64,000 nt of DNA, from the sequence record NZ_CP069608.1. One strand, given 5' to 3'. This stretch comes from a plasmid. The translations under genes were made by a program, and so were the position numbers. Shown here piece by piece: positions 12,884-41,890 of this stretch (its first letter is position 1; the number at the start of each line of letters is the position of its first letter). A model generated the notes under the pieces. That model made no database searches, was not told where the DNA came from, and worked only from the letters and a program-made list of their open reading frames with translations.

Positions 12884-13969
12884 TTATTCTAATGCAACAC
12901 TCGTCATCAACCCTAAATAAGTACTTATAATAAAACTGATTACTAAGAAGACAGCTAAAACAGGTGTTTTTTTCTTATAAAAACTAAGGACAATCATAAT
13001 AAGAAACAGAACTCCAAAAATAAAGGAAACTATTCCCTGAGATGAGCCTATTATCTCTAAATTTACTGGTATTTTAATAGAACTACCAAGTAAATTAGTA
13101 ACCCAATTTACGGCTCCTTCAGATTTGACGGTCTGATCAATATCATGTGGTGGAGATAATGTGCCTAAAACTCCTGTGAAAAAGAAGATTATTACTAAAC
13201 ATATACTTTCAGCTTTCACCCAAAGACGAGGATCAAATGTAGGCGTTTTCCTCATTCTCCTTACTAAAATCCCATTAATAAACGCAAAGACGAGAAGAGG
13301 GATAATACTTATATGTTTAAATAGTAACATCTGTCCATAGGGCAAAACCCAGGCATTTACGTAATCTTTGAAATCTATAACAAATAACATTACAATGACA
13401 CCACTTATTAAAATAACGATCATACAACTAACTGCAAATGGCGTAAACCAACGTAAGAATCTATCCCAATTTGTAGAATCTTTACTGAACCATGAAACTT
13501 GTATTAAAATACCTGCCCATAAAGTGACAGCTAAGAAATGCACTGTATGAGAAGTAAATCCTGTCCAAAAAGATAAGGAGGCTACATGACTAGCATATCC
13601 TATGCTTAATACCATTAAAAATAATAAAACAGCTTGAATATATTTGGAGCTTTCTAGATAGATAGCTAACCATAAAAGGATGGAACACCAAACGATAGCA
13701 ATCCATGCTTTACCTATTTCAAAAGTAAATAAAACAGAAAATAAAGTTTGAGCCACCCCAACACTTCCGCCAAAATAGGCAACTACTTGCAAAAGAGGAC
13801 CAAAAGTGAAGAGAATAATTCCTAAAACACAGCTTAATAAAAACCTTCTGGATATATATATACTAGGTTTCTTTTCAGGTGAAACAAATTGAAGAGCAAC
13901 ATGCCCTATTAAGATAGAAAAAAGTATATACGTTATCAGTTCAGTAAGAGGTACTAGTACGTTCAACAT
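12884..13969 (-). CDS. copD: CopD-family copper resistance membrane protein (paralog of 43215..44282)
   Basis: Shared GYASHVASLSFWTGF.SH..HFL.V.LW.GI motif with the copC-linked CopD. Confidence 0.7.
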   Translation of the reverse strand: MLNVLVPLTELITYILFSILIGHVALQFVSPEKKPSIYISRRFLLSCVLGIILFTFGPLLQVVAYFGGSVGVAQTLFSVLFTFEIGKAWIAIVWCSILLWLAIYLESSKYIQAVLLFLMVLSIGYASHVASLSFWTGFTSHTVHFLAVTLWAGILIQVSWFSKDSTNWDRFLRWFTPFAVSCMIVILISGVIVMLFVIDFKDYVNAWVLPYGQMLLFKHISIIPLLVFAFINGILVRRMRKTPTFDPRLWVKAESICLVIIFFFTGVLGTLSPPHDIDQTVKSEGAVNWVTNLLGSSIKIPVNLEIIGSSQGIVSFIFGVLFLIMIVLSFYKKKTPVLAVFLVISFIISTYLGLMTSVALE

Positions 13970-14592
13970 TAATCACCTTTCTTCTGCAATATAATCTTCC
14001 TATATAACCCTTTCATCATAACATCTACGTCTTCTTGAATTTCACACTGATTTTCAACATTTTTGTAAACACTTTCAAAGGATAGCCCAATATCTGTTCC
14101 GAGCAACTTAATGAGAGGTCGAAGCATCTTTTTACCGAAAGAAAGTTGCTGATTAGTTGGTTCAAATTTATCGAAAATTAGGATCGTTCCTTTATCCTTG
14201 GTTACTCGAATCATTTCATTTAATGATTTATTGGCGTTAGGAACAACACTAAGAAGTAGGCTGGCCACAACAATATCAAACGAATTTGATTTAAAGTCTA
14301 GTTCCTGAGCATCCATCTGTAAAAACTCAATGGAACTATTTTTATATTTATCTTTTGCTTTTTGAAGCATTTCGTCTGAATAGTCAATAGCTTTCACTTG
14401 TAAGTCATCGTAGGGTATAAATGTTAAGTCTGCGCCTGTTCCAATTCCCACAAATAAAACACGTTGTTTTGGTTTAAATAAAATATTTTGAAACACTTTC
14501 TTTCTAGCTTTATAAAATGTTCCATGGTTAAAAAAAACATCATAGAAGGGTGCCCAACATCTATAAATAAACTGATTCCACTGGTTATTCAT
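13969..14592 (-). CDS. Class I SAM-dependent methyltransferase
   Basis: Motif I VLFVGIGTGAD. Confidence 0.7.
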   Translation of the reverse strand: MNNQWNQFIYRCWAPFYDVFFNHGTFYKARKKVFQNILFKPKQRVLFVGIGTGADLTFIPYDDLQVKAIDYSDEMLQKAKDKYKNSSIEFLQMDAQELDFKSNSFDIVVASLLLSVVPNANKSLNEMIRVTKDKGTILIFDKFEPTNQQLSFGKKMLRPLIKLLGTDIGLSFESVYKNVENQCEIQEDVDVMMKGLYRKIILQKKGD

Positions 14593-14652
14593 CCTATTTC
14601 CTCCTTATAAAAAGGGCTTTCCAACTATCGATGGAAAGCCACTACATGATGT

Positions 14653-17343
14653 TTATTCTTTCATTTTTAATATTCGAAGACTATTTAAGATAACGAGTAA
14701 GGCGGCTCCTGTATCACTGAGGACAGCAATCCAAAGCGTTAACCAACCAGGGAAAATAAATACTAAAGCAATTACTTTGATAATAATCGAAAACCAAATG
14801 TTTTGTTTGATAACCGTCAATGCTTTTCGACTTAATTTCATGGTATGAGGTAGCTTTTCTAAGTTATCCGCCATCAATACAATATCTGCTGTCTCCATAG
14901 CTGTGTCTGTACCTGCACCACCCATTGCAATTCCAAGGTCTGCTGTCGCCAATGCAGGGGCATCATTAATGCCGTCTCCAACCATAGCTGTTTTATAACC
15001 TTCGCTTTGTAACTGCTTGATTGCTGTTACTTTATCTTCAGGTAGAAGGTCTGCAAAATAGCGATTTACACCTGACTGAGAGGCAATCATTTTTGCTGTA
15101 CCTTCATTATCGCCTGTTAACATGACAATTTGTTCAATTCCATTTTGTTTAAGGCTATCTAAAGCTGATATCGTTGTTTTTCTGATGATATCAGCTACTC
15201 CTACAATTCCTAACACTTCTTCTTTTGTTCCCACAATAATAATGGTTTTTCCTTCAGTTTGAAGCTTTTCAATATGTGTTAAAGAATTAGATAATGGTGT
15301 TCCTATATCTGAGAATAAATTTGCATTCCCAGCATAATAGATAGTTCCATCAATTGTTGCTTGCACACCTTTACCTGTTATACTTTTAAAATTTGAACCT
15401 TCTAAAGAAGTAATATCTTGATTATCAGCATGGGCAACAATTGCTCGTGCAATTGGATGATTTGAATACTCTTCTAACGTTTTAGTGATGGATAGAAGCT
15501 GTTCTTCTGTAGAAGTATAAGGAATTACGTTTGAAACGGCTGGTTTACCTTCCGTAAGCGTACCAGTCTTATCAAAAGCAATTGCGCTTATAGCTCCTGC
15601 TTTTTCTAAGAATGTTCCACCTTTTATAAGGACACCATTCTTAGCCGCATTACCAATAGCTGATACAATAGCCACTGGCGTAGAAATAACCAACGCACAA
15701 GGACATGCTACTACTAATAATTCAAGCCCTTTGTAGAACCAGTCACCCCATGATCCACCGAATAAAGGAGGGACCACCATCACTAATAAAGCTAGGATAA
15801 AAACAATAGGTGTATAAATCGTTGCAAATTTATCGACAAATGCTTGAGTTGGAGCTTTCTTTTCTTGAGCTTCTTCAACCAAGTGAATAATTTTAGAAAT
15901 GGTCGTGTCTTCTACCAGTTTTGTCACTTTGATTTCTAATGAACCACTCTCATTAATTGTTCCAGCATAAACAGTATCGCCAATTTCTTTATCAACTGGA
16001 ATCGATTCACCAGTAATAGGGGCTTGATTAATACTAGATTCTCCTTTTACTACTTCTCCATCTAAAGGAATTCGATCTCCCGGTTTGACCACAATGATAT
16101 TTCCTATAGATACTTCTTCTACGGCTTTTTTTAGCAATTGGTCACCTTGTTTTACCCAAGCTTCAGGAGGAGCTAAATCCATTAAGTTTCGTATCGAATT
16201 CCTTGTTTGTTCGATGGACCTAGTTTGTAATGCTACTCCTAGGGCAAATAGCCATACAACTGTAGCACCTTCGAGCCATTCACCAATAATAGCAGCTCCA
16301 AGCGCTGCAACGGTCATTAATACATTCATATCTAATGAACGACTTTTAACAGCATAAAAAGCACTTTTAGCAGGCTTATATCCACTAATGACCATAGCTA
16401 CTGCATACATAATGTTATTAATAAAAGGAGAAACCCCTGTATAAGAGCCGATGAAACCTAACGCGATAAGAATTCCTGAAAAAATAATAGGTCCATTTTT
16501 TCCTTTATTATGATTTGTTTCGACAGCTTTTCTATTATTAGTTAGTAAAGTCGCGGTATATCCTGCTTTAGAGACTTCCTTAATAATTTCTTCTACATCA
16601 TTATCATGGTCAATCTGTGCTTTTCCCGTTGAAAAGTTCACACTGACATCTTTAACAGCAGGTACAGTCTTTAAATGATTAACAATTGTGTTCGCACAAG
16701 CAGCACAATCCATTCCTTCAATCAAATAAGTTTTCATTCGCTTATTTTGATTGATTGGCTCAATACTAAAACCTAGTTTCTCAACTCGGTTTGGGATAGG
16801 GGAAAAAGCCAATTGGTTGTTTGCTACTACTTGCAATTTTCCTGTGCTGTAATTTACTTTTACATCTTGTATATCGTCTAAAGTTCTTAGACTTTTTTCA
16901 ATTGTAGCAGCACAAGCTGGACAATCCATTCCAAACACTCGATATTCGCTTTTTTCTCCAGTTCCATTTGTAACAAGTTCTTTGTCTTCAGAAGCATTAC
17001 TGTCACTGCTACAACAACTTGACTTATGTTGTAGATTTTCTTCTTTGGTTAAGGCAACACTATCTGAACTGCAGCAACTATCTAGCTTTACATTGTTTGA
17101 TGAAGCATTTGAAGCATTACTGCTACAACAATTTGATTGTGGTTCTTCATGTTTTTCCTCAACTGCTGAGGAGTTATTTGAACTACAACAGCTCGATTTC
17201 TTCTGGAGATTTTCCTCTTTTATTAAAGGAATAATATTTGAGCTACAGCAACTATCGCTTTTCACTTCATCTTTTAGCTTATTTGAAGGATTGCTACTGC
17301 AACAACTCTTATTTGATTCATCTTGTACATTTTTAGGTGCCAT
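14653..17343 (-). CDS. cadA: Cd/Zn/Pb-type heavy-metal P1B ATPase (CadA-like) with two HMA domains and an N-terminal 6x CCSS(N/D) cysteine-repeat extension
   Basis: GMDCPACAATIEKSL and GMDCAACANTIVNHL HMA motifs; CPC; DKTGTLT; GDGINDAP. Start set at MAPKNV with GAGGAG RBS. Overlaps the cadC stop. Confidence 0.9.
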   Translation of the reverse strand: MAPKNVQDESNKSCCSSNPSNKLKDEVKSDSCCSSNIIPLIKEENLQKKSSCCSSNNSSAVEEKHEEPQSNCCSSNASNASSNNVKLDSCCSSDSVALTKEENLQHKSSCCSSDSNASEDKELVTNGTGEKSEYRVFGMDCPACAATIEKSLRTLDDIQDVKVNYSTGKLQVVANNQLAFSPIPNRVEKLGFSIEPINQNKRMKTYLIEGMDCAACANTIVNHLKTVPAVKDVSVNFSTGKAQIDHDNDVEEIIKEVSKAGYTATLLTNNRKAVETNHNKGKNGPIIFSGILIALGFIGSYTGVSPFINNIMYAVAMVISGYKPAKSAFYAVKSRSLDMNVLMTVAALGAAIIGEWLEGATVVWLFALGVALQTRSIEQTRNSIRNLMDLAPPEAWVKQGDQLLKKAVEEVSIGNIIVVKPGDRIPLDGEVVKGESSINQAPITGESIPVDKEIGDTVYAGTINESGSLEIKVTKLVEDTTISKIIHLVEEAQEKKAPTQAFVDKFATIYTPIVFILALLVMVVPPLFGGSWGDWFYKGLELLVVACPCALVISTPVAIVSAIGNAAKNGVLIKGGTFLEKAGAISAIAFDKTGTLTEGKPAVSNVIPYTSTEEQLLSITKTLEEYSNHPIARAIVAHADNQDITSLEGSNFKSITGKGVQATIDGTIYYAGNANLFSDIGTPLSNSLTHIEKLQTEGKTIIIVGTKEEVLGIVGVADIIRKTTISALDSLKQNGIEQIVMLTGDNEGTAKMIASQSGVNRYFADLLPEDKVTAIKQLQSEGYKTAMVGDGINDAPALATADLGIAMGGAGTDTAMETADIVLMADNLEKLPHTMKLSRKALTVIKQNIWFSIIIKVIALVFIFPGWLTLWIAVLSDTGAALLVILNSLRILKMKE

Positions 17344-17374
17344 TTCTTCCAACTCCTCATATAGTAAGAAAAGC

Positions 17375-17734
17375 TTAAAGCGTAATTTCTTCCTTCTCAG
17401 TAAACATGACTTCAATCAACTGCTTAATATGTTCATCATTCAAAGAATAGAAAGCTAGTTTTCCTTCTTTACGGTAGCTTGCAATTCCCATATTACGAAG
17501 AAGTCTCAAATGATGAGAAGCTGTTGCTACTGTAGATCCAACAATATTAGCTACGTCACAAACACATAATTCTTCCCCCTTATACAAAGCAAGGACAATC
17601 TTCAATCTTGTTTCATCTGCTAAAGCTTTTAGGGTTTTTGTTACATCTTGAGCTTCCTTAACATCTATAGAAGACTTAATACGATTAACTTTTTCTTCGT
17701 TATAACAATAAATATCGCAGCGATCTTTTGCCAT
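17375..17734 (-). CDS. cadC: ArsR/SmtB-family Cd(II)/Pb(II)/Zn(II)-responsive repressor CadC
   Basis: MAKDRCDIYCYNEEKVNRI...ELCVCDVANIVGSTVATASHHLRLL closely matches CadC of pI258; AAGGAGG RBS. Confidence 0.85.
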   Translation of the reverse strand: MAKDRCDIYCYNEEKVNRIKSSIDVKEAQDVTKTLKALADETRLKIVLALYKGEELCVCDVANIVGSTVATASHHLRLLRNMGIASYRKEGKLAFYSLNDEHIKQLIEVMFTEKEEITL

Positions 17735-17759
17735 AATTTCCTCCTTATATTCAAACATT

Positions 17760-17819
17760 CAAATGTGTATTTGTTTATAATATATGCCATTTTTTAAAAA
17801 TGTTCAAATGTTTATTTGA
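17760..17819 (-). promoter_or_regulatory. cadC promoter region with two CadC-type operator dyads (CAAAT-gtgt-ATTTG at 17760-17773; TCAAAT-gttt-ATTTGA at 17804-17819)
   Basis: Dyads seen in sequence; resemble the TCAAATAAATATTTGA-type CadC operator. Confidence 0.5.
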
Positions 17820-17921
17820 TTATTTTAATTATATTTTTAAACTAGCACTAAATTACCGATAAAAAAGCATATGTTGGATATTAGGGGATAGTTTAAGGTT
17901 GATAGCAAAAGGGGGAAAGAC

Positions 17922-18413: not shown

Positions 18414-19139
18414 ATGCACATAGAAATGAATTTATTATTCACTTTAGGTTCATTACTTGGCTTGTTAGTAGGCGGTGGCCTCCTTAAAATAGTGAGCTAT
18501 GTAGTTCAGGGAAGGATCCAGTTTATGTATGCCATTTGTGGAGGAATCTTATTAGGATTATTGTTATTTGATATCCTTCCCTCTACTTGGCATATATACG
18601 ACCTAAAAGGAGTACTATTGGGAATTGTTGCAGGATATATCGTAATGCTATGTATTGATCTCTTTTTGCATAAGAAAAATAGTGAAATTTCACCTTTACA
18701 AGCACTCATTTTATTAACAGTTGCTATATTCTTTCATAATGTAATTACTGGAATTACATTTGGTATAACCGATATACATGAATCAACTTCTGTATTTGTA
18801 GCCACCATTTTACACCAGGTCCCAGAGGGCATGGCGATCATGACTGTTCTTTCCGTAGCAAAAGTCCCTCAATTATTCTTCTTACTAATTGTAGCCTTCT
18901 TATCTCTATCCTTAGGTGGGAGTTTATTGATTGGAGAAAGCGTACAAGCTTCCTCACTTAAATTACAAGCTTTATCGACCGGGGGAGCAATCGGAACATT
19001 GTCCTTTGTTATCTTTCATGAAGTAATAGGCAAGGCTGTGATTCATTTCAGACGTCTACATGTATGGATGCTTATAGGCTTAGGAGTATTAATTATTTAC
19101 GTTTATCAGTATTCTCTTTCATTGTTTCACGGTCATTAA
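18414..19139 (+). CDS. ZIP-family (ZupT-like) metal cation transporter
   Basis: Eight hydrophobic segments; HNVITGITFG and HQVPEGMA motifs typical of ZIP/ZupT. Confidence 0.55.
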   Translation: MHIEMNLLFTLGSLLGLLVGGGLLKIVSYVVQGRIQFMYAICGGILLGLLLFDILPSTWHIYDLKGVLLGIVAGYIVMLCIDLFLHKKNSEISPLQALILLTVAIFFHNVITGITFGITDIHESTSVFVATILHQVPEGMAIMTVLSVAKVPQLFFLLIVAFLSLSLGGSLLIGESVQASSLKLQALSTGGAIGTLSFVIFHEVIGKAVIHFRRLHVWMLIGLGVLIIYVYQYSLSLFHGH

Positions 19140-19252
19140 TGGGATTTTATTTTTAGTTGTTTTAAAAACGCCAAGAATGATGAATATACCTTGTAGGCTG
19201 AACTTTTCCCTACTATTATAGAATTAGTTACTAAAATAAATAGTAGGAAAGG

Positions 19253-19786
19253 ATGTTTCAGTTGCATAAAAGGTCTCTATTTGTACTAATCATGTTAGTC
19301 GTTAGTTTTATCTCGGTGGCTTGTTCAAACACAAACGAAGAAAAGGTAAGCAAAGAAACAACAAGCCAAACAAAGAAAGACCACGAACAGCACTCAGAAG
19401 TCGCTAGTGGTGATATTAGAGAAGAAACAACAAGTAATGGAGTTTTACCTGAATTTTTAAAAGATAAATCGGAAGATATGCAAGTCATTTATGCAGATGC
19501 TGCACAAAACAAAGAGCTATTAGAGAATATTCCATGTTACTGTGGCTGTGGTGAATCTGCAGGGCACAAAAATAACTATGATTGCTTCATCTATAAGAAT
19601 AAAGAAGATGGAAAGGTAGTATGGGATGACCATGGAACAAAATGTGGTGTTTGTCTCGAGATTGCAGCTCAGTCAGTTTCTGATTTGAAATCCGGCAAAT
19701 CAATTAAACAAATTCGTCAATCAATTGATGAAAAATATAAAAGTGGTTATGCTAAACCAACACCAACACCAACTCCAGAGGTTTAA
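19253..19786 (+). CDS. PCYCGC-motif lipoprotein (candidate metal-binding)
   Basis: Signal peptide + lipobox ISVAC; IPCYCGCGESAGHKNNYDCF...TKCGVCLEIA; C-terminal PTPTPTPEV. Confidence 0.7.
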   Translation: MFQLHKRSLFVLIMLVVSFISVACSNTNEEKVSKETTSQTKKDHEQHSEVASGDIREETTSNGVLPEFLKDKSEDMQVIYADAAQNKELLENIPCYCGCGESAGHKNNYDCFIYKNKEDGKVVWDDHGTKCGVCLEIAAQSVSDLKSGKSIKQIRQSIDEKYKSGYAKPTPTPTPEV

Positions 19787-20003
19787 AATCCCTTTTATAA
19801 AAGGAGAGAATGATGATAGTATTCCTTATCTTGATGGCTTGTTTTGGATTAACTTTAACCCTTTTAGGCTTATGGTTTGTAATTAAAGATGGTAAGAGGA
19901 ATATAAAAAATAATTGGAAAGAAAGGTAAAGAGATTAGAAGTTTTATTTATGGAGGAATAGTGATTGTTTAAATTACTTTTTTTTGGAAAATATAAAGTA
20001 TTT

Positions 20004-21339
20004 TGGTTCATCACCAAAAGTTGTACTTGCACCTGTCATGAAAGTATGTTAGCTGTTTCTAGCCGAACCCGCAATGCAAAACGCTGGATATTTCTGTATC
20101 CGTATCCCCGACGTTTCATCAGCTTGATCTTGTTATTTGTTCCCTCCATTTTCCCATTTGAATAAGGGGATAAAATGCACGATATGATTTCGTCTGTTCG
20201 TTTGACGAGTGATTTTGCGATGGCGCGAACAGCAGAACAAGGACAAAACAAATACCGATGAACCCAGGCGTTCAAACGACGTTTCGCTTGTCGCTCGTTT
20301 TGGCTTTTGGATACATAACGAAAATGTTGAAGGGATTGATAGACAGCCTGCAAGGAATCGCTCTCTTTCTGCCACTCCCGCACCGTTTGGCGTTCCTCCT
20401 CGGTGAGCTTCTCGGGGCGCTGGGTCAATAAGCGGCAAACATACCGGACATGCCCATGTTTCTTGTTCCCTTTTCCGAAGGATTTGCGGCATCGATCCAA
20501 CGCTTCCGTAAACAATTGAATCACATGAAAATAATCGACCACATGCTTCGCTTCCGGACACGCCCCTTGAATCGCTTTTTTCATCGCTGGAGCCAAATCG
20601 CTCACGACATACTGAACAGAATCAGACACAGGAGCCAACACACGTCCAATGGCTTCCTCGTTCTTTCCTGCTTCAACGGCATACACTTCTCCCGTTTCGG
20701 CATCCATGATCGCCACTCCGTAATCATGCCCTTTTCGAAACGCAAACTCATCGACACAAACTGCCTTTGGTTGGATGTCATTCGATAGGAAGGAAGGGGC
20801 ATGGGTATAAAACCAACGTTCCACGGTCGTGTAAGGAAGCTTGAGCATACGAGCCACCGCCTGAATGGATGTTCCGATGCAAGATTGCGCCACCCATTGC
20901 TGAAACGCATCCGTCGCTACACTTCGAGGGGAAATTCCGGGATAAGACGTGCTGAATGTCATGCCACATGTACCACAACGTCTACGCTCCACAGGGAGTT
21001 CCACCCAAAAGATGCCGATCCGTTGAGCATACCCATGCATCCATTGCTTCTTTTTGCCTGTCATTTTGATTGTACGCTTCAAGCAGACAGGACATAATGG
21101 GCATTGTTCGGGTAGAGAAAGTTCGAAAATCCAACGTTCTTCTTCTTTTCGCACCTTTTGAATCAAAACATCTGGTAAATCGATGAGTTCTTTGATAAAC
21201 TGAGCGTACATGCGAATTTTCCTCCAATGGTTTGGTTTGGTCACCTTTACCATACAGGAAAATTCGCATTTTTTGTATCCTCTATTTTCCCTATGCATAC
21301 CTATCTTAAAATCTCAAGTACAACTTGTGGTGAAGAGCC
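20004..21339 (-). mobile_element. ISL3-family insertion sequence, intact, with terminal IRs and 8-bp target-site duplication AGTATTTT
   Basis: IRs GGTTCATCACCAAAAGTTGTACTTG (left) and GGCTCTTCACCACAAGTTGTACTTG (right, reverse complement). Direct repeat AGTATTTT at 19996-20003 and 21340-21347. Confidence 0.8.
20036..21211 (-). CDS. ISL3-family transposase
   Basis: Zn-finger-like N-terminus CPLCPVC; DDE region DEFAFRKGHDYGVAIMDAETGEV...; C-terminal ...SNGKMEGTNNKIKLMKRRGYGYRN. Confidence 0.85.
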   Translation of the reverse strand: MYAQFIKELIDLPDVLIQKVRKEEERWIFELSLPEQCPLCPVCLKRTIKMTGKKKQWMHGYAQRIGIFWVELPVERRRCGTCGMTFSTSYPGISPRSVATDAFQQWVAQSCIGTSIQAVARMLKLPYTTVERWFYTHAPSFLSNDIQPKAVCVDEFAFRKGHDYGVAIMDAETGEVYAVEAGKNEEAIGRVLAPVSDSVQYVVSDLAPAMKKAIQGACPEAKHVVDYFHVIQLFTEALDRCRKSFGKGNKKHGHVRYVCRLLTQRPEKLTEEERQTVREWQKESDSLQAVYQSLQHFRYVSKSQNERQAKRRLNAWVHRYLFCPCSAVRAIAKSLVKRTDEIISCILSPYSNGKMEGTNNKIKLMKRRGYGYRNIQRFALRVRLETANILS

Positions 21340-21510
21340 AGTATTTTATTATAAATAAATGAGAATAAACATTTTGAAGAAGTCTTTACGGTTTTTAAGT
21401 AAAGACTTCTTTCTTTTATAAAATTGTGAACAAACAGTGACATAGCTTGCTGTTTGGACTGCTACTATTTATGATTATAGAGCTAGTAATAATAATATAC
21501 GGAAGAAAGG

Positions 21511-22008
21511 ATGCTTAGATTGTTTAAAAAACTTTTATTTTTATCAGCAGTATTAATAATCACTACTATATGGGTTATTTTACCAAATGCGAATATAGGA
21601 AAAGATGCTCAAATAAATAATAACACAGCAGATGCTAGTGAGGATGTCAGGGAAGAGACAGAGAGCCAAACCTTACCTACATTTTTGAGTGAGAAACCTG
21701 ACAATATAAAAATAGTCTATACAGAAGTTTCGAAAAACAAAAAGTTATTGGAGAATATTCCATGTTATTGTGGCAGTGGGGAAGCAGAAGGTCATAAGAG
21801 TAACTACGATTGTTTTATTAAAGAGAACAAAGATAACGGTAGAGTAGTATGGGATGATCATGCAACAAAGTCTCGAATCTGTCCAAATATTGCGTCTCAA
21901 GCGATTGTAGACTATAACGATGGAAAATCAATCAAGGAAATTCGCCAGGGTGTTGAGGATAAGTTTAAAGAAGGATACCCTAATCCTACTCCAACTCCTG
22001 AAGTATGA
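21511..22008 (+). CDS. PCYCGC-family paralog (degenerate: CYCGSG, second Cys pair lost)
   Basis: IPCYCGSGEAEGHKSNYDCF...; C-terminal PNPTPTPEV; N-terminal signal/TM. Confidence 0.65.
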   Translation: MLRLFKKLLFLSAVLIITTIWVILPNANIGKDAQINNNTADASEDVREETESQTLPTFLSEKPDNIKIVYTEVSKNKKLLENIPCYCGSGEAEGHKSNYDCFIKENKDNGRVVWDDHATKSRICPNIASQAIVDYNDGKSIKEIRQGVEDKFKEGYPNPTPTPEV

Positions 22009-22049
22009 TTCTAAATTGAGCAACAATCGTAAAATTATACACACTAAAA

Positions 22050-22085
22050 AGCCAGCAGATACTATTAATCGTCTGGCTTTTTCAA
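22050..22085 (+). terminator. Hairpin AAAAGCCAG...CTGGCTTTTT after the PCYCGC paralog
   Basis: Seen in sequence. Confidence 0.5.
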
Positions 22086-22175
22086 TTAAGAACAAGTAGA
22101 ATTTTAAGAACAATATTAGGATTCTTCTCACCATCTTACCTAGAAGCAGCTACTATAGTGTGTTAACAAGGAATG

Positions 22176-22232
22176 TTGACACATTAATCTTGAAATGCAT
22201 ATAATCAATATATGAACAATTGTTCATATATT
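22176..22232 (+). promoter_or_regulatory. Sigma-A-type promoter (TTGACA-18-TATAAT) followed by a perfect 26-bp palindrome AATATATGAACAA|TTGTTCATATATT; ArsR/SmtB (CzrA-type) operator
   Basis: Seen in sequence; near-identical promoter/operator at 24279-24346. Confidence 0.6.
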
Positions 22233-22338
22233 CACCTTAATGAAAACATGTTCAGGTAGATTACAGTTAACAACTATACTACGTATATTAAAAGTTTAAC
22301 TATTTAAAATCCTGAATATGCATATAGGAGGGAGAAAA

Positions 22339-22680
22339 ATGTCAGATTTTTTTAGACGTTTATTAGGTGATCATCATGACGACCATCACCGTCGACATGG
22401 GCATCACGGGGACCATCACGGGCATCACGATGACCATCACGGGCATCAGGATTATTATGAAGAGCCTCGTCCATATCGATATGAGGACCCAAGAACTACA
22501 CCAAGGCCTTCAAATATGATTGTTTGTCGGCGCTGTAATGCTTCTAATGATGTGAGTCATAAGTTTTGTTATGAATGTGGAGATCGGCTTCAAAAAGATC
22601 CTGTACTTTGTCCAAAATGCAATAATACTGTAATGGCACACGCAAAATTTTGTCAGCAGTGTGGAACATCTATTAGATGA
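22339..22680 (+). CDS. His-rich protein with C-terminal double zinc-ribbon
   Basis: MSDFFRRLLGDHHDDHHRRHGHHGDHHGHHDDHHGHQDYY... then CRRC...CYEC...CPKC...CQQC; GGAGGG RBS. Confidence 0.6.
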   Translation: MSDFFRRLLGDHHDDHHRRHGHHGDHHGHHDDHHGHQDYYEEPRPYRYEDPRTTPRPSNMIVCRRCNASNDVSHKFCYECGDRLQKDPVLCPKCNNTVMAHAKFCQQCGTSIR

Positions 22681-22682
22681 AC

Positions 22683-22725
22683 AAAACCTTCTCTTCTTAC
22701 AACCTGAAGAGAAGGTTTTGTCATT
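22683..22725 (+). terminator. Perfect hairpin AAAACCTTCTCTTC-ttacaacctg-AAGAGAAGGTTTT
   Basis: Seen in sequence. Confidence 0.6.
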
Positions 22726-22958
22726 AAAAGCTAATTTTATTTACCTATACTATAAAGAGCACATATTTATTTTGTTTTTAAAACATCAAAACAACTACTC
22801 ATTAGGCTTTCCATATATTAAATTAAAGATGCGAAATTAACCTTTCACGCACTTTACAGCTTGATTTAGAAACCCGAAGTCTTGTGTTATGGTTTCAAAG
22901 AGACAAATCTGAAACAGATGCTAAATTCTCATTAGCATAAAGTAGAGAAATTGTATTT

Positions 22959-23951
22959 TTATTCTTTGCCATTCCAGTTCTTATCAATGTCAAACATTTC
23001 TTCTCCATGGGCATGTTGTTCGTCCTCTACTTGAATTGTCACGTGACCAATTTGAAACTTTTTCTCTAGAACTTGTTCAATGTTACGAATAATGTTCATA
23101 GTTTCTCGAACTGTGATACTTCCATCTACTTCAATATGACTACTCATCGCGTTTTTATTCGAAGTTAAACTCCAAATATGAAGATCATGAATGTCTTTAA
23201 CATCTGGTATAGATTTAATTTCTGTTTCTACTTCTGAAAATTCGATTCCAGCAGGGGTGCCTTCCATTAATACAACATAGGTTTCTTTTATGATACGCCA
23301 CGCCCCAACTGCCACAAGTAGGGCAATTAAAATACTTAAAATAGGATCTAGAATGTACCACTGTGTAAAATACATAATTATACCTGCTACAATAACCCCT
23401 GCTGAAGCTGCAGCATCACCCATTACGTGAAGCATGGCACTTCGAATGTTTACGTTGTCAGCTTGATTTTTCATACCTAGACCTATGTAAAGGTTTACAA
23501 CAAGTCCAATCCCTGCGGTAATAAATAAAACAGTTCCTTGAACGGGTTCGGGATTTGTAATACGTTTATAAGCTTCTCCACCAATAAAGATGGCTATTCC
23601 AATTAATGTTAATGCATTTAAAAGCGCGGCAAGTATCGTAATACGGTGATAGCCGTATGTCATAGAAGGCGAAGGGGGATTCAACGACATTCGAATGGCT
23701 AGCCAGGCCACAATTAGTGAGGCCACGTCGGTTAACATGTGCCCAGCATCACTTAATAAAGCCAAGCTATTTGCTAAAAAACCGCCTATCACTTCTGCAA
23801 TTAATACTAATAAGCCTAAAAAGATTGCTTTTTTTAATTTGTCTTGTGCAACGTGAACATGTCCCATTCCATGAGCATGTTCATCATGGTTATCATTATG
23901 TTGATGAACATGCCCGTTATTTTCTAGAATTTTCTCCATCATATCCTCCAT
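22959..23951 (-). CDS. czcD: Cation diffusion facilitator (CzcD-like Zn/Co/Cd efflux) with His-rich N- and C-termini
   Basis: CDF TM signature SLALLSDAGHMLTD ... HVMGDAAASAGVI; His-rich tails. Confidence 0.85.
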   Translation of the reverse strand: MEDMMEKILENNGHVHQHNDNHDEHAHGMGHVHVAQDKLKKAIFLGLLVLIAEVIGGFLANSLALLSDAGHMLTDVASLIVAWLAIRMSLNPPSPSMTYGYHRITILAALLNALTLIGIAIFIGGEAYKRITNPEPVQGTVLFITAGIGLVVNLYIGLGMKNQADNVNIRSAMLHVMGDAAASAGVIVAGIIMYFTQWYILDPILSILIALLVAVGAWRIIKETYVVLMEGTPAGIEFSEVETEIKSIPDVKDIHDLHIWSLTSNKNAMSSHIEVDGSITVRETMNIIRNIEQVLEKKFQIGHVTIQVEDEQHAHGEEMFDIDKNWNGKE

Positions 23952-24278: not shown

Positions 24279-24346
24279 TTGACACATTAGAAGTATGCTA
24301 CATATAATGAAAACAAACATATGAACATATGAGTTATTGTTCATAT
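24279..24346 (+). promoter_or_regulatory. Sigma-A-type promoter (TTGACA-18-TATAAT) + ArsR-type operator (half-sites ATATGAACA / TGTTCATAT with 10-nt spacer; overlapping CATATG-AA-CATATG dyad)
   Basis: Seen in sequence; paralog of the 22176-22232 site. Confidence 0.55.
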
Positions 24347-24364
24347 ATTCAAGGATGTGAAAAT

Positions 24365-24766
24365 ATGATAACAAATAAAGAAACTAAAACAGTGGCGACA
24401 ATTCAGGAAACGTGCAGTCAAACGGTTATTCACGAAGAAGTCGTAGCAAAAGTAAAAGAGACAACACCAGATCAAGAAGTCTTAACAAATGTCGCAGAGC
24501 TATTTAAGGTATTAGGCGATCGAACAAGAACACGTATTCTCCATGCTTTATTTGAAACAGAAATGTGTGTATGTGACTTGGCTTATCTATTAGAAATGAC
24601 ACAATCATCCATTTCTCATCAGTTACGTGTCTTGAAGCAAGCTAAGCTGGTTAAAAATCGTAAAGCAGGAAAAGTAGTATATTACTCACTTGCTGATCAT
24701 CATGTGATTCAAATTTTCAATCAGGCATTCCAACATGTCACTGAAGATAGCATAAAAGAAGAATAG
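24365..24766 (+). CDS. czrA: ArsR/SmtB-family metalloregulator (CzrA/CadC-like; CVC alpha3 motif and DHH...H alpha5 motif)
   Basis: DRTRTRILHALFETEMCVCDLAYLLEMTQSSISHQLRVLKQAKLV...LADHHVIQIFNQAFQHV; start set at MITNK. Confidence 0.75.
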   Translation: MITNKETKTVATIQETCSQTVIHEEVVAKVKETTPDQEVLTNVAELFKVLGDRTRTRILHALFETEMCVCDLAYLLEMTQSSISHQLRVLKQAKLVKNRKAGKVVYYSLADHHVIQIFNQAFQHVTEDSIKEE

Positions 24767-24779
24767 AGGCGAGGAATCG

Positions 24780-27167
24780 ATGGAAGAACAAAAGCAAAAA
24801 GTGAAACGGGAACTGTTACTTGAAGGATTAGATTGTGCCAACTGTGCTCTTAAAATTGAAAATGGAGTAAAGGGTATACAAGGAGTATCTTCATGTTCTG
24901 TTAACTTTGTTACAAAGACTCTTACCTTAGAGACTGATAATACTCAAGAAGGAACAGTTATATTAGAGGCAAAGAAAAAAGTGAAAACGTTAGAACCTCA
25001 TATCAATATACAAGAAAAAGGGGCTTCTAAAAGAACTGCTGCTGTAAGAACTTTTTATCTAAAAGGATTAGATTGTGCAAATTGCGCAGCCAAAATTGAA
25101 CAAGGAGTAGGAAAACTAGAAGGAGTAACATCTTCTACTGTTGATTTTGTTTCTAAAAAACTAATTATGGAAGCTTCTAACCCAGATCAACTAGATCAAT
25201 TAGAAAATGAAGCTACAAAGATTGTGAAGAAGTTAGAGCCCGAAGTAGAAGTTATATCAGAGTCTCATAAACACGATGACGGTCATGATCATGGTCATGG
25301 TCACGACCATGATCACGGAAGTGAAAATACTAAAAAAATGTTTGCACGATTAGGAATAGGTGCTGTGCTAGCCGGAATCGGAATGTTTGCTCCTGTTTCC
25401 GGAGTGGCAGAGCTTGGATTATTTCTCATTGCTTATCTCATTATAGGTGGAGATATCGTTTTACGAGCTGTTAAAAATATTCTAAGAGGGCAAGTCTTTG
25501 ATGAACATTTTCTTATGGCTTTAGCAACCATCGGAGCATTTGCTATTAAACAGTACCCTGAAGGGGTTGCAGTTATGCTCTTCTACCAAGTGGGAGAATT
25601 ATTCCAAAGCATTGCTGTAAATCGTTCTCGTAAGTCTATTAGCGCATTGATGGATATTCGACCAGATTCTGCGAATGTAAAACGTGGAAGTGAATTCATA
25701 AAAGTTTCTCCAGAAGACGTAAATATAGGCGATATCATCTTGATTAAACCTGGCGAAAAAGTTCCACTAGATGGAAAAGTATTAGTTGGTACTTCAATGA
25801 TGGATACATCAGCTTTAACGGGAGAATCTGTACCACGAGAAGTAGAAGTCGGAAGCGATGTGCTTAGTGGGTTTATTAATAAGAATGGTGTCTTAACCGT
25901 AGAAGTAACAAAAGGATTTGAAGAATCAACCGTATCTAAAATTTTAGAGTTAGTTCAAAATGCAAGTAGTCGAAAAGCACCAACAGAAAACTTCATTACA
26001 AAATTTGCTCGTTATTACACTCCAGTTGTAGTAATTGTGGCAACAGCATTAGCTGTTTTACCACCGTTATTGATTAGTGGTGCTACTTTTTCAGATTGGA
26101 TTTATCGTGCACTAGTATTCTTAGTTATTTCTTGTCCTTGTGCACTTGTCGTTTCAATTCCATTAGGATTCTTTGGAGGAATAGGTGCTGCATCCAAAAC
26201 AGGTATTCTTGTAAAAGGAAGTAACTATTTAGAAGCGTTAAACGACGTTAAATATGTTGTATTTGATAAAACTGGTACATTGACCAAAGGTGTATTTAAA
26301 GTAACAAGTATTCGTCCTAAGTTTAACTTTACAAAAGAACAAGTTTTGGAATATGCAGCTTTAGCTGAAGTTCATTCTAATCATCCAATTGCGGAGTCTA
26401 TCCGCAAGGCATATGGAAAGAAAATAAATGAAGATGCAATACAGGAATATAATGAAATTTCAGGACATGGTATTTCGGTTACAGTAGATGGAAAAGAAAT
26501 TGCAGCTGGAAATGCTAAGCTTATGAACAAAGAACAAATCTCTTTTCAACGACCAGATGAAATTGGAACCATTGTTCATGTCGCTGTAGATAAACAATAC
26601 GCTGGATACATTGTTATTTCAGATGAAGTGAAAGAGGATTCTAATCAAGCCATTCAAGCCTTAAAAGCATTAGGCATTAAAAAGACAGTCATGCTAACTG
26701 GAGATGCGAAAGCAGTTGGAGATTCTGTGGGTAAACAGTTAGGGTTGGATGAAGTTCATGCAGAGTTGTTACCTCAACATAAGGTAGAGAAAATCGAGAA
26801 TTTAGATAAAGAAAAATCTCCAAAAGAAAAAATTATATTTGTAGGCGATGGTATTAACGATACACCTGTTTTAGCACGAGCAGATGTTGGAATTGCCATG
26901 GGGGGACTAGGGTCAGATGCAGCCATTGAGGCAGCAGACATTGTCATTATGACAGATGAGCCTTCTAAAATCCCAACAGCTATTGGTATCGCTAAACGTA
27001 CTCGTCGCATCGTATGGCAAAATATTTTATTTGCCTTGGGAGTTAAAGTTATCTTCTTACTATTAGGTGCATTTGGAATTGCAACCATGTGGGAAGCTGT
27101 CTTTTCAGATGTGGGTGTAACGTTGCTAGCTGTTTTAAATGCCATGCGTGTATTACGTTTGAAATAA
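24780..27167 (+). CDS. Zn/Cd-type heavy-metal P1B ATPase (CadA/ZntA-like), two HMA domains + His-rich linker
   Basis: GLDCANCALKIE, GLDCANCAAKIE; HKHDDGHDHGHGHDHDHG; SCPCALVVS; DKTGTLT; GDGINDTP. Confidence 0.9.
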   Translation: MEEQKQKVKRELLLEGLDCANCALKIENGVKGIQGVSSCSVNFVTKTLTLETDNTQEGTVILEAKKKVKTLEPHINIQEKGASKRTAAVRTFYLKGLDCANCAAKIEQGVGKLEGVTSSTVDFVSKKLIMEASNPDQLDQLENEATKIVKKLEPEVEVISESHKHDDGHDHGHGHDHDHGSENTKKMFARLGIGAVLAGIGMFAPVSGVAELGLFLIAYLIIGGDIVLRAVKNILRGQVFDEHFLMALATIGAFAIKQYPEGVAVMLFYQVGELFQSIAVNRSRKSISALMDIRPDSANVKRGSEFIKVSPEDVNIGDIILIKPGEKVPLDGKVLVGTSMMDTSALTGESVPREVEVGSDVLSGFINKNGVLTVEVTKGFEESTVSKILELVQNASSRKAPTENFITKFARYYTPVVVIVATALAVLPPLLISGATFSDWIYRALVFLVISCPCALVVSIPLGFFGGIGAASKTGILVKGSNYLEALNDVKYVVFDKTGTLTKGVFKVTSIRPKFNFTKEQVLEYAALAEVHSNHPIAESIRKAYGKKINEDAIQEYNEISGHGISVTVDGKEIAAGNAKLMNKEQISFQRPDEIGTIVHVAVDKQYAGYIVISDEVKEDSNQAIQALKALGIKKTVMLTGDAKAVGDSVGKQLGLDEVHAELLPQHKVEKIENLDKEKSPKEKIIFVGDGINDTPVLARADVGIAMGGLGSDAAIEAADIVIMTDEPSKIPTAIGIAKRTRRIVWQNILFALGVKVIFLLLGAFGIATMWEAVFSDVGVTLLAVLNAMRVLRLK

Positions 27168-34653: not shown

Positions 34654-35439
34654 CTATCTCTGTTCGATTAATTCTTGTTTCTTCAACCATTTCTCTGTCT
34701 CTTTCATGCGGTAGGAGTCACCAATCATATTCACAATATAGGCTTGATGGGTTAAACGATCAATCATAGCTGCTGTCATGACAGGGTCTTGAAAGATTTC
34801 TCCCCATCTTTCAAAGGATAAGTTCGTTGTAATAATGGTTGATTTCTGATTCGCTCGTAATGATAAATGAGTAAACAATAACTCTGCACCTTCTTTATCA
34901 AATGAAATATAGCCCATTTCATCTGCGATGACTAAATCATATTTTTCAAATCGATTCTGAAAAACTCGTAGAGTTCTCTCCGACCTGCATTCCTTTATTT
35001 GGTTGACTAATAAAGGAACCGTTGTAAACCATACCTTATAACCTTCCATACAAGCTTTTATCCCTAAGCCAATTGCCATGTGAGTCTTTCCTGTACCCGC
35101 ATTGCCAGCTAAAATGACATTTCGGCCTTCTCTGATAAAATCTAAGCTCTTTAAAAGTTTAAATTTTTGCTGGGCATCTTTTGATAAATCCTCAGTTGAT
35201 AGATCTTCTAGATATTTCTTATAGGGAAAGTCTGCACGACGGATTCGATTATATTTGGCAGATTCCTGTCTAGAATCCAGTTCTTTTTGAAGTAACTGTC
35301 GTAAGAATTCTTCATAACTGGCATCTGTTTCAACTGATTCTTTAATCACTTCTTCAAAATCCTGACGGATTTTAGGTAATTTGAGCTCTTTGCTTAATGT
35401 ATTAATTTCCTCTACCAATGCTTGCTTAGAAAGTTCCAT
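34654..35439 (-). CDS. istB: IS21-family helper ATPase IstB
   Basis: Walker A GNAGTGKTH; Walker B LVIADEMGY. Confidence 0.9.
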   Translation of the reverse strand: MELSKQALVEEINTLSKELKLPKIRQDFEEVIKESVETDASYEEFLRQLLQKELDSRQESAKYNRIRRADFPYKKYLEDLSTEDLSKDAQQKFKLLKSLDFIREGRNVILAGNAGTGKTHMAIGLGIKACMEGYKVWFTTVPLLVNQIKECRSERTLRVFQNRFEKYDLVIADEMGYISFDKEGAELLFTHLSLRANQKSTIITTNLSFERWGEIFQDPVMTAAMIDRLTHQAYIVNMIGDSYRMKETEKWLKKQELIEQR

Positions 35440-35452
35440 TTACCTGCACCCC

Positions 35453-37045
35453 TTATTGGATAAATTTCGTTTGGAACAGTTGATCATAGGTCTGAAGATG
35501 TTGTTTAGAATAGTGTTCGATATCGATGGTTTTCTGAGATGAATAGTCTGTAGGTAGATGTAGTCCTTCTCTTTGTTTCGCGCAGATTAATTTGATTTTA
35601 TCTGTGGTGATATGGCTAGGATGAAGAGTAGAGAGTTCTTGAATGCTTTTTTCTATCTGTTCGATAGTAATTCCAGACTTAATAAAGTGTATTAACTCTA
35701 TAAAATCCTTAGGGTGAGTGGTATAGTAAGAGTAGTATATTTTCTTTAATTTTGGATTTACCTGTTGTAATGCTGTGCTATCAGCTAATGCACCAGGCTT
35801 TTTTTGTAGGGTATACAAATAATGTTCAAGGTGTAAGCTCCATTCATGATTTCCAGTTTGTCGTGGATGTAAAGCGATTCTCTTTTCCCGATAAAAACAT
35901 TGAATATGATCGCTGTAAATTTTGATCCGAATCATCTCTCCAACTAGATGGTCCGGTACAGAGTAGTAGTTTTGATCAACGATGACAGTTGAATACTTAG
36001 TCACACGTCCATTTATCACTCTTGCTGCATCAAAAGGCGGGGGCGCTACTAATAAATACTTCTTTTCTTCTTTTATTAAGTCGTTTGGCGTCAAACGAGA
36101 TGATGAGTTCTTCTCTTTGTGATTGAGTTTCAAGCAAATTTCATGTAAATAGTGATTTGCTTTTTCTAATGTGTCAAAGGTATCTTGAAAGGCAAATGCC
36201 TTTCTTCTAATCATCTCTACACTTCGCTCTACATGTCCTTTTTCATTTCCACTTGCTGTATTACAGAAACGGTAATGAAATGAATAATAAAGCGAAAGCT
36301 TTATCAGCGCCTCGGTAGGTTCTCTTTCTGTGCCAATAAATCTCTTTACGGCTACTTTCATATTGTCATATACCATGGTGTGAAATACACCGCCAATATC
36401 TTTAAAGAACAACGAATGAGCTTCTTGAAAACATTCCGTTTTTTGTTTTGTAAATAAATAAGCCATTCTAAAGTTACTATAAGCTGACGTAAACGTGGCC
36501 ATTTGTAAGGCCTGTTTTCTGCCATTAATCATTAATTTGACTTCTCCCCAGTCAAATTCGCAAACCTCTCCAGGCGCGTAAGCTCCTTTAATAAATGCTT
36601 CTTTTTTTGTTTTTTCCATTGCTCTTATCGTGCGAAGAACTGTGCTATAACTAATGGTAAATCCTTCGGATTCTAAGGATTCATGAATATCAACAGCTTT
36701 TTTTATTTGCTTCCTTAACCCCTGTTGCTTTTTCTGCACATTTTCTTCTAGATGCATTTGAATACGATGTAAAATCTCTTTAGATAGCTTTCTTTTCTTG
36801 GAATCACGTTTCTTGTATCTTGGGGCCTCTACAATTTCTTGAATAAGTTCACCAGTATCCGCATTTTTATCTTCACTCAGTAATTTGTTCTTCCTCGTCT
36901 CATACTCACGAATATACTTTCCTACTGTTTCTCGGTTAACGCCTACTAAGCTGGCAATCTTTCTCTGAGAATAACCTTCTCGTACGTGCAGTAATATAAT
37001 CTCCTGTTTCTTTTTCAGCGTAATCATCTCCCCAAATTCCCCCAT
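35453..37045 (-). CDS. istA: IS21-family transposase IstA
   Basis: N-terminal HTH (REGYSQRKIASLVGVNRETV); DDE core region. Confidence 0.9.
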   Translation of the reverse strand: MGEFGEMITLKKKQEIILLHVREGYSQRKIASLVGVNRETVGKYIREYETRKNKLLSEDKNADTGELIQEIVEAPRYKKRDSKKRKLSKEILHRIQMHLEENVQKKQQGLRKQIKKAVDIHESLESEGFTISYSTVLRTIRAMEKTKKEAFIKGAYAPGEVCEFDWGEVKLMINGRKQALQMATFTSAYSNFRMAYLFTKQKTECFQEAHSLFFKDIGGVFHTMVYDNMKVAVKRFIGTEREPTEALIKLSLYYSFHYRFCNTASGNEKGHVERSVEMIRRKAFAFQDTFDTLEKANHYLHEICLKLNHKEKNSSSRLTPNDLIKEEKKYLLVAPPPFDAARVINGRVTKYSTVIVDQNYYSVPDHLVGEMIRIKIYSDHIQCFYREKRIALHPRQTGNHEWSLHLEHYLYTLQKKPGALADSTALQQVNPKLKKIYYSYYTTHPKDFIELIHFIKSGITIEQIEKSIQELSTLHPSHITTDKIKLICAKQREGLHLPTDYSSQKTIDIEHYSKQHLQTYDQLFQTKFIQ

Positions 37046-41051: not shown

Positions 41052-41437
41052 CTCCTATTTTTTTGTTTCTAATTAATAAATTAGTATTTATATTCTACAA
41101 TTAGCCCATAAATAAACCATAAAACCTTTTGTTAAATTATTAAGTTGCATTTTTTCACATTCCAAAAAGTAAAAAAATCTATCCTCTTTAATTGGTAAGT
41201 AGATAAGATTAACCCCAAAATTGACTTTATCAATTATCTATAATTAGATTCCTTTCTCCTATCCGTGCTTAGATAATAATAAGTGCTTTTGAAGATGTGT
41301 TTGGACATCTTATTTTTTCATATATGAAAACTTTTAGCTTGTTCTATGTATTCGAGATTGTACATTTTATTTAGAACGCATAGAAGATAGAGTGAAGTCT
41401 TTCATACCCTAGTCTTCTTACTTTAATTAATAATGTT

Positions 41438-41503
41438 TAATTTAGATTTAAATAGGTTATTTTATCTAAGAACACTATTTAAATCTAAATTAAACTCGAG
41501 AGG
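41438..41503. repeat. Perfect 20-bp inverted repeat GTTTAATTTAGATTTAAATA ... TATTTAAATCTAAATTAAAC (24-nt loop) immediately upstream of the YjzC-like gene RBS
   Basis: Seen in sequence. Confidence 0.5.
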
Positions 41504-41513
41504 ATGAATAACT

Positions 41514-41810: not shown

Positions 41811-41847
41811 TAAATAAAGTGCTTATTAATTATGACTCCAAAAAACA

Positions 41848-41890
41848 ACCTCCTCGATTCTGATGTCTTGAGAGGTTGTTTCTATGTCTT
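41848..41890 (+). terminator. Hairpin AACAACCTC...GAGAGGTTGTT + T-rich
   Basis: Seen in sequence. Confidence 0.5.

Follow-up and report, generated by a model that had tools for sequence, protein, structure and literature searches.

What the terminal metal-binding regions of P1B-type ATPases do is still argued, with delivery, sensing, autoinhibition and selectivity all under discussion. Zn, Cd and Pb are all bound by the N-terminal domain of E. coli ZntA, and removal of its CCCDGAC motif abolishes Pb binding, according to the account that PMC10800456 gives of Liu 2005; the title of Mitra and Sharma (2001) calls this domain non-essential. For Zn pumps, N-terminal metal-binding domains adjust turnover, and transport can do without them (PMC10246665). 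Autoinhibition by a flexible N-terminal tail has been proposed for LpCopA, with the metal-binding core acting as the sensor (PMC11970713). Plant pumps carry tails of another kind: AtHMA2c, with six di-Cys motifs, binds 3 Zn, and AtHMA4c, with 13, binds about 10 Zn at nM affinity, which is lost in a CC-to-AA variant (PMC6255694, PMC10654040). These plant extensions have been explicitly contrasted with bacterial ZntA and CadA, and di-Cys tails have so far been treated as a trait of plant pumps that is lacking in bacterial ones (PMC6255694). Here we describe a CadA-type pump gene in 64,000 nucleotides (nt) of plasmid DNA (NZ_CP069608.1; this whole stretch, with a G+C content of 33.5%, is called the window below). 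Its product begins with a tail of six vicinal Cys pairs, which is apparently an undescribed, expanded form of the known accessory metal-binding extension.

Anatomy of the Cys-pair tail and its pump

The pump and the parts of its N-terminus lie in the window as follows, with residues given in amino acids (aa):

14653..17343, minus strand: coding sequence of the P1B-2 heavy-metal ATPase (CadA/ZntA type), 896 aa, assigned from Pfam, TIGR01512/TIGR01525 and motifs
16942..17343, minus strand: N-terminal tail, aa 1-134, rich in Ser, Asn, Glu and Lys, with six vicinal Cys pairs
17293..17304, minus strand: CCSS unit 1, aa 14-17
17239..17250, minus strand: CCSS unit 2, aa 32-35
17209..17235, minus strand: short hydrophobic stretch IIPLIKEEN, between the second and third Cys pairs
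17179..17190, minus strand: CCSS unit 3, aa 52-55
17119..17130, minus strand: CCSS unit 4, aa 72-75
17065..17076, minus strand: CCSS unit 5, aa 90-93
17035..17058, minus strand: hydrophobic stretch VALTKEEN, between the fifth and sixth Cys pairs
17005..17016, minus strand: CCSS unit 6, aa 110-113
16756..16956, minus strand: HMA domain 1, aa ~130-196, GMDCPAC at 138 (Pfam, AlphaFold2, motif)
16543..16737, minus strand: HMA domain 2, aa ~203-267, GMDCAAC at 210 (Pfam, AlphaFold2, motif)

The anatomy of the tail and its non-random character can be read directly from the protein. All 12 cysteines between residues 1 and 134 are paired, and the CCSS units follow one another at spacings of 18, 20, 20, 18 and 20 residues. 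Six CC pairs arose in 0 of 200,000 composition-preserving shuffles of the tail, the combinatorial probability that 12 Cys fall as six isolated pairs is about 1e-7, and no other stop-free segment of 60 aa or more in the window has over two CC. Ser makes up 24% of its residues, Asn 12% and Cys 9%; it has one aromatic residue, two His and a net charge of -7, and hydrophobic residues account for 18% of it vs 46% of the remaining protein. No Pfam or NCBIfam model covers the tail, and a Pfam scan of the pump protein returned two HMA domains, E1-E2_ATPase and Hydrolase (the HAD hydrolase domain) only, with no metallothionein family among the matches. We also modelled the full pump protein with AlphaFold2, from a low-diversity alignment of 16 sequences. 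The mean predicted local distance difference test score (pLDDT) was 38.8, with the core below 50 and only the two HMA domains confident; in this model, which is poor overall, the tail scored 26-34 and had no secondary structure in residues 1-129 or in the hydrophobic segments. The tail is probably a cytosolic, disordered extension.

The two hydrophobic segments have counterparts elsewhere. VALTKEEN is kept as (S/D)(S/T)IALT(K/T) in the plasmid-type and chromosomal Priestia homologues, and segments resembling IIPLIKEE occur in other genera (SIPIFIQ, SIPILIQ, NLIQI, LNLVNV and KFKKSLNLVNV), as does FAAFKPLTTV before CCCDGAC in E. coli ZntA. One or two short strand-like hydrophobic segments between Cys motifs were seen in most tails (L006, L011, L017, L024, L039 and L177). 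Such segments may serve as a docking element. On the opposite strand an open reading frame (ORF) of 158 aa with LLQQL repeats runs antisense to the tail (16982..17458, plus strand); we rejected it as a gene because it is a shadow of the CCSS codons, that is, their complement.

The pump coding sequence starts at the ATG at 17343, with GAGGAG 9 nt upstream, and the NCBI entry has the same start. We rejected a TTG start at 17415, since the ORF would then overlap cadC, and homologues as well as the NCBI entry begin at the ATG. A preliminary description of this DNA had put the repeats at residues ~30-135, a numbering that suits the longer TTG frame and does not suit the start at 17343. The repeat peptide that it quoted is present exactly, and the six evenly spaced CCSS motifs that it reported are borne out at residues 14, 32, 52, 72, 90 and 110, followed, as it had also said, by two canonical GMDCxxC HMA domains. 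Its assignment of the pump as a CadA-type ATPase agrees with our scores and motifs and with the CadC orthologue encoded upstream: TIGR01512, the cadmium-family P1B ATPase model, gave 536.7 bits (cutoff 313.5) and TIGR01525 629.2 (cutoff 346.25). With the ZntA equivalog/exception models NF033775 and NF008262 the pump scored below the cutoffs (594.9 vs 1240 and 671.6 vs 1005), and by sequence we class it as a relative of ZntA and not as a ZntA orthologue; the closest solved structures are 7QBZ and Shigella ZntA 4UMV. The P-type core motifs are in place (TGES at 444, DKTGT at 591, GDGINDAP at 789), together with CPCALVISTP at 547, NIWFSIIIK at 848 and SDTGA at 876, which satisfy CPCx4SxP, Nx7K and DxG, the signature of the Zn/Cd/Pb (P1B-2) subgroup in Arguello's classification. 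Because the P1B-2 motifs, the hidden Markov model scores and the CadC partner agree, Cd/Zn/Pb would be the relevant chemistry, and the pump is predicted to be a CadC-regulated Cd/Zn/Pb efflux ATPase of the P1B-2 group. The identical 896-aa protein is entered at NCBI as 'heavy metal translocating P-type ATPase (plasmid) [Priestia megaterium]' (WP_205663256.1 / QSF42162.1) and is recorded on 10 contigs, with neighbours that are alike wherever flanks are available; the six listed exact-copy contigs stem from six different samples, of which three are NCBI assemblies, the 140,904-bp CP180491.1 among them, and the other three sequencing runs.

Origin, turnover and distribution of the units

At the DNA level the repeat is old and diverged and is not a slippage-prone array. 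Tandem Repeats Finder (TRF) found no tandem array and reported solely a 9-nt x2 repeat; identity between the units is 47-75%, and their longest exact match is 13 nt. We rejected a slippage-prone array on the absence of a TRF array and on this 13-nt limit. A larger block of three units recurs at an offset of 174 nt:

17137..17310, minus strand: first three-unit block, aa 12-69, recurring at the 174-nt offset
16963..17136, minus strand: second three-unit block (aa 70-127), duplicated from the first long ago

The two 174-nt blocks share 59% nt identity (ungapped) and 50% aa identity, with 77% in the best 74-nt stretch. Codons vary between the units (TGT and TGC for Cys, AGY vs TCA for Ser), which argues that the motif is held at the protein level and is no residue of recent copying. 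Our best explanation of these sequences is that a block of three units was duplicated long ago to give the tail, which has since been reshaped as units were gained and lost.

Such unit turnover is observed directly among close relatives. The comparison used a 2,298-nt core shared with the window, aligned without gaps in each case:

P0008: core 95.1% and tail 83.4% identical (nt); one Cys pair fewer (5 pairs), 40 gap columns
P0009: core 93.6% and tail 81.7% identical (nt); two exact 60-nt indels
P0010: core 85.2% and tail 73.9% identical (nt); one unit more, giving 7 pairs, and 86 gap columns

In P0009 a 20-aa unit has been lost at position 2 and another gained at position 5. The tail evolves faster than the core, with 74-83% vs 85-95% nt identity, and the indels fall in the tail and none in the core. 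The tail of HMA4 is 64% identical between two Arabidopsis species and the remaining protein 96% (PMC6255694, PMC10654040), a contrast similar to that between tail and core in the window clade. Amid this change the cysteines stand firm: all 12 are invariant in six homologues with six units, whose tails are 42-91% identical, and the Cys pairs look conserved by selection. The preliminary description had supposed that copy number may vary, and across the relatives it does, from 5 to 8 units, the two exact 60-nt indels of P0009 each amounting to one unit. The same periodicity that it saw in the DNA is there weakly, as units 47-75% and blocks 59% identical, and not as a tandem array. A recombination-prone repeat, which it had also suggested, does not hold up in the sense of a near-perfect array, given the TRF result and the six units kept in every relative that is at least 93% identical. 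This constancy places copy-number change at the scale of diverged alleles and not of a hypermutable repeat.

We surveyed the wider distribution by a scan of one genome per species, which gave 44 loci, among them 35 Bacillota orthologues with a readable N-terminus. Between two and eight CC pairs stand ahead of the first HMA domain in 27 of these 35, and more than one pair was found in 0 of 8 non-Bacillota loci. Pair numbers in some of the relatives are:

Priestia, chromosomal CadA: 4 CC pairs
Rossellomorea and Mangrovibacillus: 5 CC pairs
Peribacillus frigoritolerans: 7 CC pairs
Brevibacillus dissolubilis, with DSCCSDSxKQxA units: 8 CC pairs

In Mangrovibacillus and Rossellomorea (L009 and L010) the ArsR-type regulator before the 5-pair pump was itself seen to end in ...VACCSNHIV and so to have a vicinal Cys pair at its C-terminus. 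Of the 120 best database clusters, more than 100 are chromosomal Priestia CadA proteins (852-853 aa, 76-80% identical to the window protein), which have their four CC pairs after a His-rich start, and the window protein falls into a small plasmid-type clade (P0001, P0005-P0013) with 5-8 pairs. Plasmid pumps with tails are found in PLSDB for Peribacillus asahii, with 7 pairs, and for Staphylococcus casei, with 3; a megablast of the locus against PLSDB found this cadA at 85% identity or above on no plasmid, and the best tblastn match there, on the Peribacillus asahii plasmid, was 69.5%. Across 23 tails with 93 pairs the consensus is (D/S)-S-C-C-S-S-(N/S), 186 of the 209 tail cysteines (89%) are paired, and the flanking consensus is shared across families, as far apart as those of Staphylococcus and Brevibacillus. 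In the relatives examined, the tail is without exception fused ahead of HMA domains.

Searches for the tail apart from its pump gave little. A tail-only query of a 5.8-billion-protein database raised six word-sharing candidates of which none scored, probably through the handling of low-complexity sequence, which makes this search uninformative on distribution. A tail profile run against 1.84 billion representatives gave five matches at E<=1e-3 and no SCCSS module on its own or in another context, with the limit that HMMER is weak on such sequence; one match was a truncated CadA N-terminus (P0126), the other four were unrelated repeat proteins, and plant proteins were absent from the matches. 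A scan of metagenome contigs with a degenerate DNA pattern, made to match three (S)CCSS units in frame, returned simple-sequence DNA, with a genuine tail in 0 of the 80 loci listed, and is likewise uninformative. The preliminary description had called the tail unusual for a P1B-ATPase. Within its own lineage that does not stand, with CC pairs in 27 of the 35 Bacillota orthologues, in more than 100 Priestia clusters and in the Staphylococcus casei plasmid pump; judged by its relatives, the tail is ordinary within Bacillales.

Possible roles of the tail

We favour, with moderate confidence, the reading that this is an accessory thiolate tail, which would bind soft metal and collect or sense it for the pump and which would not be essential for transport. 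Its thiolate pairs would bind the soft divalent metals Cd, Zn and Pb, and possibly Hg; at two pairs per ion, as in AtHMA2c, about three ions would be held per tail. Beside the two HMA domains the tail could then act as a high-affinity collector or sensor, which tunes pump turnover and perhaps widens the metal range, and transport itself would have no need for it. We infer metal binding, stoichiometry and a regulatory role by analogy, and the suggestion of the preliminary description that the repeats might form a thiolate-rich capture tail or a regulatory domain is plausible in the light of E. coli ZntA and plant HMA2/4. That description had also asked whether the tail might be a common, already-described variant with no role in metal binding. 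It is common, as set out above; in the literature we found no description of a Bacillales CC-repeat tail, with limited coverage of subscription journals, and no evidence against a metal-binding role.

Several points weigh against an accessory thiolate tail or limit how it may be understood. Some orthologues have 0-1 CC pairs, so that the tail is dispensable for the family, and pair number shows no preference for even values across species, which does not favour a strict design of two pairs per ion. The AlphaFold2 model is too poor to prove disorder of the tail or to exclude docking. The homology between the Bacillaceae SCCSS units and the ZntA motif, considered at the end of this report, rests on short motifs joined via intermediate sequences and not on statistics. 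Moreover, an 871-aa ATPase of B. vietnamensis and its regulator (orf4087/4088) are strongly induced by Cd (48-105-fold, with 48-87-fold for orf4087) and gave no marked Cd resistance in heterologous expression (PMC6975044); this ATPase is equal in length to the Mangrovibacillus and Rossellomorea pumps (L009/L010) and may be a tail-bearing orthologue.

A wider proposal goes beyond the accessory thiolate tail, and we put it forward tentatively, as possible and on balance doubtful. The SCCSS tail would be an unrecognised module widespread in Bacillales and the bacterial counterpart of the di-Cys tails of plant HMA2/4, a metal-dependent regulatory or collecting tail derived from an ancestral arrangement of 'Cys motif - short hydrophobic strand - Cys motif' shared with E. 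coli ZntA. Gains and losses would adjust how many units there are (0-8), with an expansion in some plasmid resistance copies. Folding induced by metal would govern whether the hydrophobic segments dock on the pump or on the HMA domains, and metal would perhaps be accepted from bacillithiol complexes.

Four alternatives were considered, by weight metallothionein-like buffering, neutral expansion, a redox switch and a contingency repeat. In the first of these the tail would mainly sequester metal stoichiometrically at the membrane, without regulating or feeding the pump. Twelve thiolates in 134 residues, in a Cys-pair pattern as in metallothioneins and in HMA4c, a 'high-capacity chelator', are what such a buffer would look like, and within Priestia the plasmid-type copies have 5-8 pairs vs 4 in the chromosomal ones. 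However, a few sites per membrane pump would presumably amount to negligible capacity, the profile search of 1.84 billion representatives yielded a truncated CadA N-terminus and no stand-alone protein, and the tail is always fused ahead of HMA, with no metallothionein family scored in Pfam. We regard buffering as an unlikely main function.

That the tail is a neutral low-complexity expansion, a duplicated spacer in which CC pairs are carried along with no function, appears improbable to a like degree. Its Ser/Asn-rich low complexity, the lack of predicted structure, the drift of unit number from 0 to 8 among orthologues and the wording of the Mitra and Sharma (2001) title on ZntA would all suit this explanation, and if the tail is inert it is merely a lineage-specific low-complexity extension. 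Against it, the cysteines are invariant while the linkers diverge to 42% identity, the synonymous and Ser-family codon differences argue for constraint at the protein level over recent copying, and one flanking consensus runs from Staphylococcus to Brevibacillus with 89% of tail Cys paired.

Vicinal Cys pairs are able to form eight-membered-ring disulfides, and Bacillales use bacillithiol. From this chemistry a redox or thiol-stress switch could be drawn, in which vicinal Cys, as strained disulfides or bacillithiol mixed disulfides, gate the pump under oxidative stress. Yet the operon is under a CadC-type metal sensor, metal is what the motif's closest studied relatives bind, and the neighbouring ZIP, PCYCGC, CDF and CopD genes hold no pointer to redox control, which makes such a switch very improbable. 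The least credible of the four is a contingency locus, in which hypermutable repeat DNA varies resistance by copy-number switching from strain to strain: the unit-sized 60-nt indels and re-ordered unit of P0009 and the extra unit of P0010 would fit it, but it is largely excluded by the DNA, with no TRF array, a longest exact match of 13 nt, units 47-75% identical, one identical protein on 10 contigs (six listed, from six samples) and six units kept in relatives that are at least 93% identical.

Bacillales supply a series of natural pumps for the study of the tail, in which cores 85-95% identical carry tails of 4-8 Cys pairs and distant orthologues have 0-2. This amounts to a dose series for the effect of Cys pairs on affinity, metal range (Pb, Hg) and turnover. 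The SCCSS unit might also serve as a genetically encodable Cd/Pb-binding tag in biosensors and bioremediation.

The locus and its comparison with known systems

The sequences that surround the pump gene are consistent with a cadCA-type operon layout:

17375..17758, minus strand: cadC, gene for an ArsR/SmtB Cd/Pb/Zn sensor (HTH_5; match to CadC 1U2W)
17779..17826, minus strand: promoter-like site TTGAAC-17-TATATT, candidate cad operator/promoter (consensus match only)
14615..14640, minus strand: terminator-like hairpin 13 nt past the pump stop codon, with a 9-bp stem, 5 GC pairs and a T-run

The cadC gene lies upstream of the pump gene and ends 31 nt from it. Its product gave E=1e-38 against S. 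aureus CadC 1U2W, in an alignment that takes in the N-terminal Cys pair region and the CVC motif, and its segments DRCDIYC and ELCVCD align with the CadC ligand regions, for which the alpha3N Cys ligands have been described (PMC11672702). A 13-nt imperfect inverted repeat (AAAATGTTCAAAT / ATTTGATTATTTT) at 17797-17826 overlaps the -35-like hexamer of the promoter-like site. Within this repeat, TCAAATAAACATTTGA may resemble the pI258 cad operator.

Other genes for metal handling and mobile elements lie nearby. Downstream of the pump gene, at 12884..14592 (minus strand), a gene for an S-adenosylmethionine-dependent methyltransferase (UbiE/COQ5-like, 207 aa) overlaps by 1 nt that for a CopD-family membrane protein (361 aa), and this pair comes after cadA in L045-L050, the exact copies, wherever their flank is long enough, and in L051 and L054, the two relatives with sufficient flank. 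A metal-homeostasis island (18414..23951 and 40113..44282) includes a ZIP transporter, two PCYCGC-motif proteins, CDF exporters at 22959..23951 and 40113..41051, CopC at 42658..43215 and CopD at 43215..44282; interspersed with it are an IS21 pair (34654..37045) and a rve/Mu-type transposase (53437..54699). Between the PCYCGC-family genes at 19253..19786 and 21511..22008 sits an ISL3-family insertion sequence (20005..21339, transposase ORF 20036..21298, minus strand), which is missing in three assemblies (L045-L047) that are 100% identical apart from it; the two blast pieces share an 8-bp overlap, which fits a target-site duplication of that length. The plus strand encodes, at 24329..27167, a second P1B ATPase with an ArsR-type regulator, which is 795 aa long and has two HMA domains, a His-rich linker (HKHDDGHDHGHGHDHDHG) and no Cys pairs, so that with the Cys-pair pump and this His-rich pump both accessory metal-binding styles are present on one plasmid region.

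Of the systems described so far, the CadC-CadA pair of S. aureus pI258 has the same operon logic, with the CadC Cys ligand positions kept and the pump in the TIGR01512 family. The pI258 CadA has a single HMA domain. Classical plasmid CadA differs in that it matches the window protein only from about residue 130, at 47-49% identity, which means that classical CadA is without the tail. Yeast Pca1 is similar in being a P1B-2 pump whose Cys-rich N-terminal extension binds Cd and controls pump availability, as a Cd sensor and degron, but its mechanism is the eukaryotic ubiquitin/proteasome one and it has no sequence similarity to the window tail. LpCopA likewise has a flexible N-terminal tail before the metal-binding domain, with autoinhibition proposed until metal binds, and is by analogy a possible template for the action of the tail and its hydrophobic mini-segments; it differs in being a Cu(I) pump of the P1B-1 group with a tail that has no Cys-pair repeat.

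Plant HMA2 and HMA4, which are P1B-2 pumps for Zn/Cd, likewise have multiple CC in a terminal extension on the cytosolic side (6 in AtHMA2c, 13 in AtHMA4c), and there too CC number varies between close relatives and divergence is much faster in the tail than in the core. In contrast to the window tail, theirs are C-terminal and, at 470 aa, far longer; they finish with a His-stretch and have a role in membrane targeting. There is no sequence relationship between the two, and the resemblance is convergence, with the plant tails an analogue and not members of the same family.

A similar build is found in E. coli ZntA, a P1B-2 pump in which a Cys-rich, apparently unstructured stretch (residues ~1-46, with the CCCDGAC of CCCDGACSST) stands directly before the GMDCAAC HMA domain. 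Intermediate forms come from Paenibacillus, in which CCNDDGCSSTPS aligns with CCCDGACSSTPT of E. coli ZntA (its N-terminus read from NC_000913) and the preceding KPKELKFKKSL aligns with ZntA KKAPQFAAFKPL. Tails of Paenibacillus, Brevibacillus and Parageobacillus combine motifs of the CC-x4-C type (CCADQSC, CCNDDGC and CCNGDNC) with a short hydrophobic segment. ZntA has one four-Cys motif, of the CC-x(3-4)-C type, and the window protein has CC pairs only, six of them in an 18-20-residue repeat, with two HMA domains and no exact CCxDxxC. It repeats twice the layout of a Cys pair, a hydrophobic segment (IIPLIKEEN, VALTKEEN) and a Cys pair, and this shared layout lets the tail be read as an amplified version of the Cys-rich extension of ZntA-type pumps. 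Taken together, these comparisons suggest that the tail is most likely an expanded form of the ZntA/CadA-type Cys-rich N-terminal extension.

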